From assembly GCF_055900595.2 (NCBI RefSeq), contig NZ_CM148325.1: DNA of 64,000 bases; one strand, given 5' to 3'. Within the stretch, counting starts at the first letter, position 1. Each line of letters starts with the position of its first letter. The notes beneath the pieces are model-generated. The model did not search any database. It was given only the letters and a program-made list of their open reading frames with translations, and had not been told where the DNA came from. Position numbers and translations under genes: made by a program. Shown here piece by piece: positions 7,403-7,789 of this stretch.

Positions 7403-7789
7403 TTAACGATACTTCTGGTGATAGGCGTTGCGGGTCGTTTTCAGTTGCTCTGCGGCAGCCTGCGCTTCTTTTACTTTACCTTCATTAGCCAGCTTCAGCG
7501 CGTCATCAATCTGACCGACCAGAATGTCGAAACCGTGGCGGAAGTCTTTCATCTCCGGGCTGTCTGGCGATTTGCCTTCGAGCTTGGGCGGCGTTGCTTT
7601 TTGCGCATCCAGCGCCGCTGCGCGCATTTTGGTTAACGCGTCTTTGACTTGCGCCGCGTTATCGGCTTTTTCGACCACTTTTAAATTGTCGTTGAGGGTT
7701 TCCATATTGTCTTCAAGATCAGCGGCAAACGACGCCGAACTGAATACCAACGAGGAGACTGCAAGAATAGCTAACAGGCTTTTACGCAT
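7403..7789 (-). CDS. cybC: Soluble cytochrome b562 precursor, apparently intact
   Basis: 128-aa ORF with a signal peptide and the mature b562 sequence [15 protein letters not shown]...NAYHQKYR. Confidence 0.85.

Follow-up and report, generated by a model that had tools for sequence, protein, structure and literature searches.

The window, a stretch of 64,000 nucleotides from contig NZ_CM148325.1 of the RefSeq assembly GCF_055900595.2, carries the Escherichia coli chromosomal segment nrdD-nrdG-cybC-pmbA-yjgA-mpl. When positions 6400-8200 were compared with 5426 complete E. coli genomes, strain Z0117EC0005, which comes from a dog in Korea, matched at 100% identity, and at least 99% identity over the same region was reached by only 15 of the 5426. 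The gene calls used here are the RefSeq annotation of the identical Z0117EC0005 record (L002), mapped across to the window. The gene for cytochrome b562, cybC, lies between nrdG and pmbA, with pmbA on its 5' (upstream) side in the same orientation, and the last codons and stop (TAG) of nrdG adjoin a cassette that holds a relB gene. In the gap between nrdD and nrdG, at 6337-6489, REP/BIME-like palindromes are clustered, with three overlapping matches to the Rfam family naRNA4 (RF02564) at 31.6-41.9 bits, below the gathering score of 59.5. Three alignments were used to delimit and compare the features: A1 covers the alleles of the nrdG-cybC interval, A2 covers the pmbA-cybC junction in a K-12-type genome, O157:H7 SS17, E308, TUM9754, YP3 and the window, and A3 covers relB-only alleles including those of O145 RM9873, 2013C-4282, WP8-S18 and N32. 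The features are as follows.

6508-6972, plus strand: nrdG, anaerobic ribonucleotide reductase activase, 154 aa (RefSeq annotation; Pfam Fer4_12, 2.2e-56)
6969-7343, no strand assigned: relB cassette remnant, 375 bp, bounded by the direct repeat TTGCG at 6964-6968 and 7339-7343 (sequence comparison)
6973-6984, minus strand: footprint of the deleted relE, TCACTCATCCAG, the complement of CTGGATGAGTGA, encoding the last relE codons L-D-E-stop (alignments A1 and A3)
6973-7212, minus strand: relB, RelB/DinJ antitoxin, 79 aa (RefSeq annotation and profiles)
7237-7269, minus strand: putative relB promoter and operator, palindromes TGTAATGCAT/ATGCATTACA and TGTAATGC/GCATTACA flanking a TATAAT hexamer (inverted repeats I2 and I4; sequence reading)
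7370-7395, minus strand: 11-pair stem-loop immediately past the stop codon of cybC, likely the cybC terminator (terminator scan, inverted repeat I3, A1)
7403-7789, minus strand: cybC, soluble periplasmic cytochrome b562 precursor, 128 aa (RefSeq annotation and profiles)
7403-7405, minus strand: cybC stop codon
7406-7723, minus strand: part of cybC encoding the mature 106-aa protein
7724-7789, minus strand: part of cybC encoding the signal peptide
7771-7796, minus strand: 26 bp absent from K-12, reading CTAACAGGCTTTTACGCATTGCTCAC on the plus strand (alignment A2 and coordinate check)
7790-7841, no strand assigned: pmbA-cybC spacer, 52 bp, with a GC-rich hairpin at 7819-7836 (A2, terminator scan, copy-number search)
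7842-9194, minus strand: pmbA (tldE) metalloprotease (annotation of the identical sequence)

The cybC reading frame opens with an ATG and runs through 128 codons without an internal stop. Its product matches the whole of the Pfam profile PF07361, Cytochrom_B562 (positions 1-102 of 102; 5.8e-34, 117.2 bits, cut-off 30), as well as the whole of the NCBIfam equivalog NF011632 (positions 1-127 of 127; 193.7 bits, cut-off 130). Against the full-length PDB chain 9tmp_A, 'Soluble cytochrome b562', it is identical at 126 of 128 residues and differs only by I39V and D72G, two conservative substitutions that are present in many other isolates too; V39 and G72 are common natural alleles, carried for example by YP3 and LSC52. 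The 22-aa signal peptide has the same residues 1-22 as the reference precursor in 9tmp_A, and the mature b562 chains in the PDB, where the structures matching CybC number in the hundreds, begin at residue 23 with ADLEDN. The alignment with 9tmp_A shows precursor residues Met29 and His124 conserved; in the mature protein they are Met7 and His102, which the established 256B structure identifies as the axial heme ligands. RefSeq annotates the identical sequence in Z0117EC0005 as cybC, with the protein accession WP_001232246.1. The first-pass annotation had described the gene as complete at 128 aa with both signal peptide and mature sequence, and on this the reading frame, PF07361, NF011632 and the alignment with 9tmp_A all agree.

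The closest known system is the soluble cytochrome b562 of E. coli itself (CybC; UniProt family 'cytochrome b562'; PDB 256B, 1QPU and 9TMP; BRIL), which has the same 128-aa length, signal peptide and heme ligands, and the same pmbA-cybC-nrdG neighbourhood. Export, heme binding and expression of the window's cybC are predictions. The Sec system would export the precursor, the 22-aa signal peptide being cut after SFA (Ala22) as established knowledge of b562 suggests, and the mature 106-aa protein would form a four-helix bundle, a fold predicted from 98% identity to solved structures, that binds one non-covalent heme b via Met7 and His102 and should give a reduced alpha band at 562 nm. Protein engineers make wide use of cytochrome b562, BRIL serving as a fusion partner for crystallisation and cryo-EM, and about 93% of sequenced E. 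coli have it as a normal periplasmic protein. No physiological electron-transfer partner of b562 is known, and the absence of the protein from the model strain K-12 has contributed to the difficulty of assigning it a physiological role.

The first-pass annotation had described the K-12 copy as a truncated pseudogene, and the MG1655 record NC_000913.3 indeed lists cybC (b4236, 4459488-4459855) as a pseudogene. The gene has the same locus and orientation as that of the window and about 96% DNA identity to it over the shared part. Alignment A2 separates K-12 from O157:H7 by one clean gap of 26 bp, equivalent to window positions 7771-7796, which takes out the spacer between Shine-Dalgarno sequence and ATG, the ATG itself, codons 1-6 and the first base of codon 7. 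K-12 has thereby lost MRKSLL, the positively charged start of the CybC signal peptide; the window retains the 26 bp and does not have the K-12 junction, in which GAATAG is joined to TTCC. The 3' end of the K-12 gene is complete, and because its other 121 codons match O157:H7 CybC without exception, K-12 cybC is a young, single-hit pseudogene. Beyond the lesion itself, the b4236 locus has a palindromic repeat upstream and an empty nrdG-cybC spacer, and the window differs from it in both.

The distribution of the deletion follows the K-12 lineage. A 107-bp probe over the deletion site was covered to at least 80% in 5070 genomes and to only 66% in the rest, while a 35-bp probe for the K-12 junction found the exact junction in 355 of the 5426 complete E. 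coli genomes; the two counts add up to 5425, that is, to all genomes with any match. Among the matches listed, the junction carriers recognisable by name are all laboratory derivatives of K-12 (MG1655, W3110, DH5alpha, BW25113, DH1, C600, J53, MC4100, TG1, NEB Turbo and others). The deletion frequency of 6.5% is thus a product of how many laboratory K-12 genomes RefSeq contains and not a natural frequency. Annotations of the K-12 gene clash, PGAP calling a 121-aa 'cytochrome b562' CDS that begins with ATT in K-12 derivatives (L001 2118-2483) where the curated MG1655 record has a pseudogene (L005 2989-3356) for the same sequence. In view of the ATT-start CDS, 'pseudogene' is a curatorial call for K-12 cybC, and null status is unproven. 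In published work, CybC has been described as cryptic in K-12 and expressed in non-K-12 strains (PMC4361602), cybC has served as a pseudogene control within the Keio knockout collection (PMC6945024), the gene ranks among those with the highest expression in the B strain REL606 when compared with MG1655 (PMC3446290), and the protein has been detected in ST131 by mass spectrometry (PMC6561927). The difference between an intact cybC and the K-12 defect is therefore an already known and documented strain polymorphism, and K-12 is a poor reference for the cybC locus.

On the pmbA side, most E. coli, among them K-12 and O157:H7, have a dispersed, palindromic repeat of about 130-155 bp between pmbA and cybC (L001 2486-2640), which is absent from the window and from YP3 (A2); the resulting short spacer allele is found in roughly a quarter of genomes. 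The repeat is present in 1-6 copies per genome (median 3) and folds as a long hairpin (-63 kcal/mol, z = -7.4), and a search of Rfam with it gave no matches. An assignment to ERIC/IRU was considered and not confirmed, the ERIC1R and ERIC2 primer sequences used matching neither the repeat nor the window, and Rfam having no match; the repeat may be the 'RSA' class of the 1997 K-12 genome paper. Between the edge of the repeat and the start of the 26-bp deletion of K-12 lie 11 bp (TTCCTTTTTTA).

On the nrdG side, three alleles are distinguished in A1. The great majority of genomes, K-12, YP3 and O157:H7 among them, have a spacer of 44 bp that contains the hairpin TTCCCTGTT...AACAGGGAA; others, such as LSC52, have a 658-bp relBE cassette; and the window has the 375-bp remnant with relB only. 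A search of the 5426 genomes found relB at this site in 454 and relE in 394, which gives about 60 relB-only genomes, and since about 4970 genomes (some 92%) are without relB there, nothing in the nrdG-cybC interval is specific to K-12. The K-12 spacer has the architecture seen in O157:H7, YP3, E308 and other strains with an intact 128-aa cybC, and is simply the common allele, which co-occurs with intact cybC. The states of relB and cybC vary independently, relB being found with intact cybC and the empty spacer with either intact or truncated cybC. The outgroups in the 11-locus scan described below do not decide whether the 44-bp spacer or the cassette is ancestral. Judged by these comparisons, about 1 kb of chromosome holds three separate polymorphisms, namely the 26-bp deletion in K-12, the repeat between pmbA and cybC, and the spacer between nrdG and cybC.

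From the intact cybC and the RelB-like gene beside it, the first-pass annotation had proposed that the nrdG-cybC interval was rearranged or deleted in K-12, and a single event that took out the RelB-like gene and truncated cybC together would fit the contrast between K-12, with no relB and a truncated cybC, and the window, with relB and an intact one. Comparison with K-12 bears out that the two intervals differ, 375 bp with relB standing against 44 bp, and that cybC differs as well; the K-12 spacer, however, proves to be the majority allele, and the truncation lies elsewhere. The interval adjoins the 3' end of cybC, which is complete in K-12, whereas the 26-bp lesion is at the 5' end of the gene, on the pmbA side (A2). 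Moreover, the spacer of K-12 matches that of YP3, O157:H7 and others in which cybC is intact, relB is missing from the site in some 92% of genomes as against a cybC deletion in only 6.5%, and the K-12 spacer contains no remnants of relBE. A single event, refuted by alignments A1 and A2, keeps next to no probability, and the causal interpretation, by the same alignments, is largely wrong within an annotation that is partly supported overall. A different suggestion would be that the window's cybC is intact but silent, the palindromic repeat being missing upstream and the gene perhaps having no promoter of its own. A strict sigma-70 scan of window positions 6850-8100 returned no sigma-70-like site, and hence no promoter between pmbA and cybC, and these genes are only 52 bp apart with a hairpin inside the spacer. 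The scan was strict, however, and its empty result is not evidence of absence; the short spacer is the allele of so many genomes, YP3 for example; the cybC reading frame is without decay; and since cybC and pmbA are co-oriented, read-through is possible, so that cybC could be transcribed by read-through from pmbA or from a promoter inside pmbA. Silence of the gene is thus very unlikely. We are left with a reading that is very probably correct, in which window positions 7403-7789 hold an ordinary wild-type cybC allele and K-12 is the exception through a 26-bp deletion private to its lineage.

The gene next to cybC has a history of its own. The 79-aa reading frame at 6973-7212 on the minus strand is identified as RelB by PF04221 (7.6e-16, 58.2 bits), by the NF008412 equivalog (128.2 bits, cut-off 96) and by TIGR02384 (72.2 bits), and it is the 80-aa RelB of LSC52 without the C-terminal Leu, otherwise identical, ending in ...VRLDE where intact RelB ends in ...VRLDEL. 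No relE was found in the window, where the nrdG stop codon directly adjoins that of relB, and the missing relE beside relB makes this a remnant and not a complete toxin-antitoxin module. By contrast, LSC52 is one of 394 genomes that have relE, its cassette encoding the 80-aa RelB and a 96-aa RelE (PF05016, 55.9 bits; TIGR02385) in genes that overlap by 11 bp. Set beside the relBE type II modules of K-12 and their plasmid homologues, the window gene encodes an antitoxin of the RelB/DinJ family that scores above the cut-off of the RelB equivalog, and sister strains have the RelE/ParE-family toxin in the classic overlapping operon layout, but the window has lost the toxin gene and keeps just the antitoxin with its promoter region. 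PADLOC reported nothing meaningful for RelB or RelE. Palindromes flanking a TATAAT hexamer are typical of autoregulated antitoxin promoters, and those at 7237-7269 upstream of relB would form such a promoter with its operator. The window RelB is predicted to be active, and the orphan protein probably still represses its own promoter.

The way in which relE was lost can be reconstructed from the ends of the two genes. The cassette is 658 bp in LSC52 (L003) and 283 bp shorter in the window, and the octamer TCATCCAG, an 8-bp microhomology, has two copies in LSC52, which lie at the 3' ends of relE (L003 position 1976) and relB (L003 position 2259), as against one copy in the window at 6977-6984. 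Excision of relE by a 283-bp deletion between the two copies of TCATCCAG left the orphan relB. The final 12 nt of relE are fused in frame to relB, which shows that the toxin gene was deleted here, not inserted elsewhere, and this fusion gives a RelB without its final Leu. O145 RM9873, 2013C-4282, WP8-S18 and N32 have the same relB-only architecture as the window (A3), and the base directly after TCATCCAG is T in the window and N32, and C in O145 RM9873, 2013C-4282 and WP8-S18. This junction variant may reflect recurrent deletion, with crossovers that fell at different positions within an imperfect 11-bp repeat, or a later SNP. A search for the exact 33-bp junction found 10 genomes, an undercount of the roughly 60 relB-only genomes caused by SNPs inside the 33 bp.

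The cassette was followed beyond E. coli by scanning one genome per species with a degenerate cybC pattern, which gave 11 loci that were then analysed by tblastn and direct reading. Two of the loci, from Escherichia sp. E1V33 and 'E. coli' SCPM-O-B-8794, carry relB without relE. E69 (L016, ~5270-5290) and E. whittamii (L020, ~180-200) have relBE with an intact relB and a frameshifted relE, the frameshift being due to a 2-bp deletion in the former and a 1-bp deletion in the latter. Since it is found in several Escherichia species, the cassette is old within the genus. Enterobacter has an unrelated spacer, and in Salmonella diarizonae the 1.7 kb or so downstream of cybC contain no nrdG. In Escherichia sp. 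MOD1-EC7003 the site of the relBE cassette is precisely empty (L022 9181-9242) and keeps the right-flank hairpin TTGGGCGG...CCGCCCAA of the cassette-bearing alleles. The stem-loop at 7370-7395 in the window is likewise common to the relBE-bearing alleles and MOD1-EC7003, a different hairpin being present in K-12 and most E. coli. By this comparison there are two kinds of 'empty' allele, that of MOD1-EC7003 with the cassette-type hairpin and that of K-12 and the E. coli majority with the other.

In all, relE has been inactivated in at least three independent ways, through the 283-bp deletion and through the frameshifts of E69 and E. whittamii. This bears on the order of events. The relB-only arrangement might be taken as the original one, relE having joined relB later in other strains, for relB-only alleles stand on divergent backgrounds and also occur in the other Escherichia lineages E1V33 and SCPM-O-B-8794. 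The window, however, keeps the last 12 nt of relE (L-D-E-stop) in frame with relB while the final Leu of RelB is gone, its junction is the product expected of a deletion between copies of TCATCCAG and is implausible as an insertion site, and relE is decaying by frameshift in other lineages; a late arrival of relE is extremely improbable. The cybC locus is a compact textbook case of the decay of a chromosomal toxin-antitoxin system, in which the toxin is lost first and the antitoxin retained. Because relE was lost in at least three ways while the relB frame and operator stayed intact across Escherichia species, and because the N-terminal half of RelB changed only synonymously in the ten sequences described below, orphan RelB might even be more than debris and have been kept for a purpose, as an anti-addiction antitoxin against relBE modules arriving on plasmids or as a transcriptional regulator at the nrdG/cybC junction. 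Such a purpose seems rather unlikely, and the repeated loss of relE with relB retained is only a mildly interesting by-product of the analysis.

A plasmid origin of the cassette was also considered and set aside, as a near-identical plasmid copy was not found in the plasmid collection searched; what conjugative plasmids commonly have are relatives with 60-80% identity. The sole match at 99.7% in that collection, NZ_CP134663.1, is a record of 4.9 Mb, evidently a chromosome filed as a plasmid. Among ten relB sequences compared, residues 1-53 contain 7 variable codons, all of them synonymous, and residues 55-78 contain 5 non-synonymous codons along with 2 further synonymous ones, a pattern that hints, in a small sample (n = 10), at purifying selection on the N-terminal DNA-binding half of RelB.
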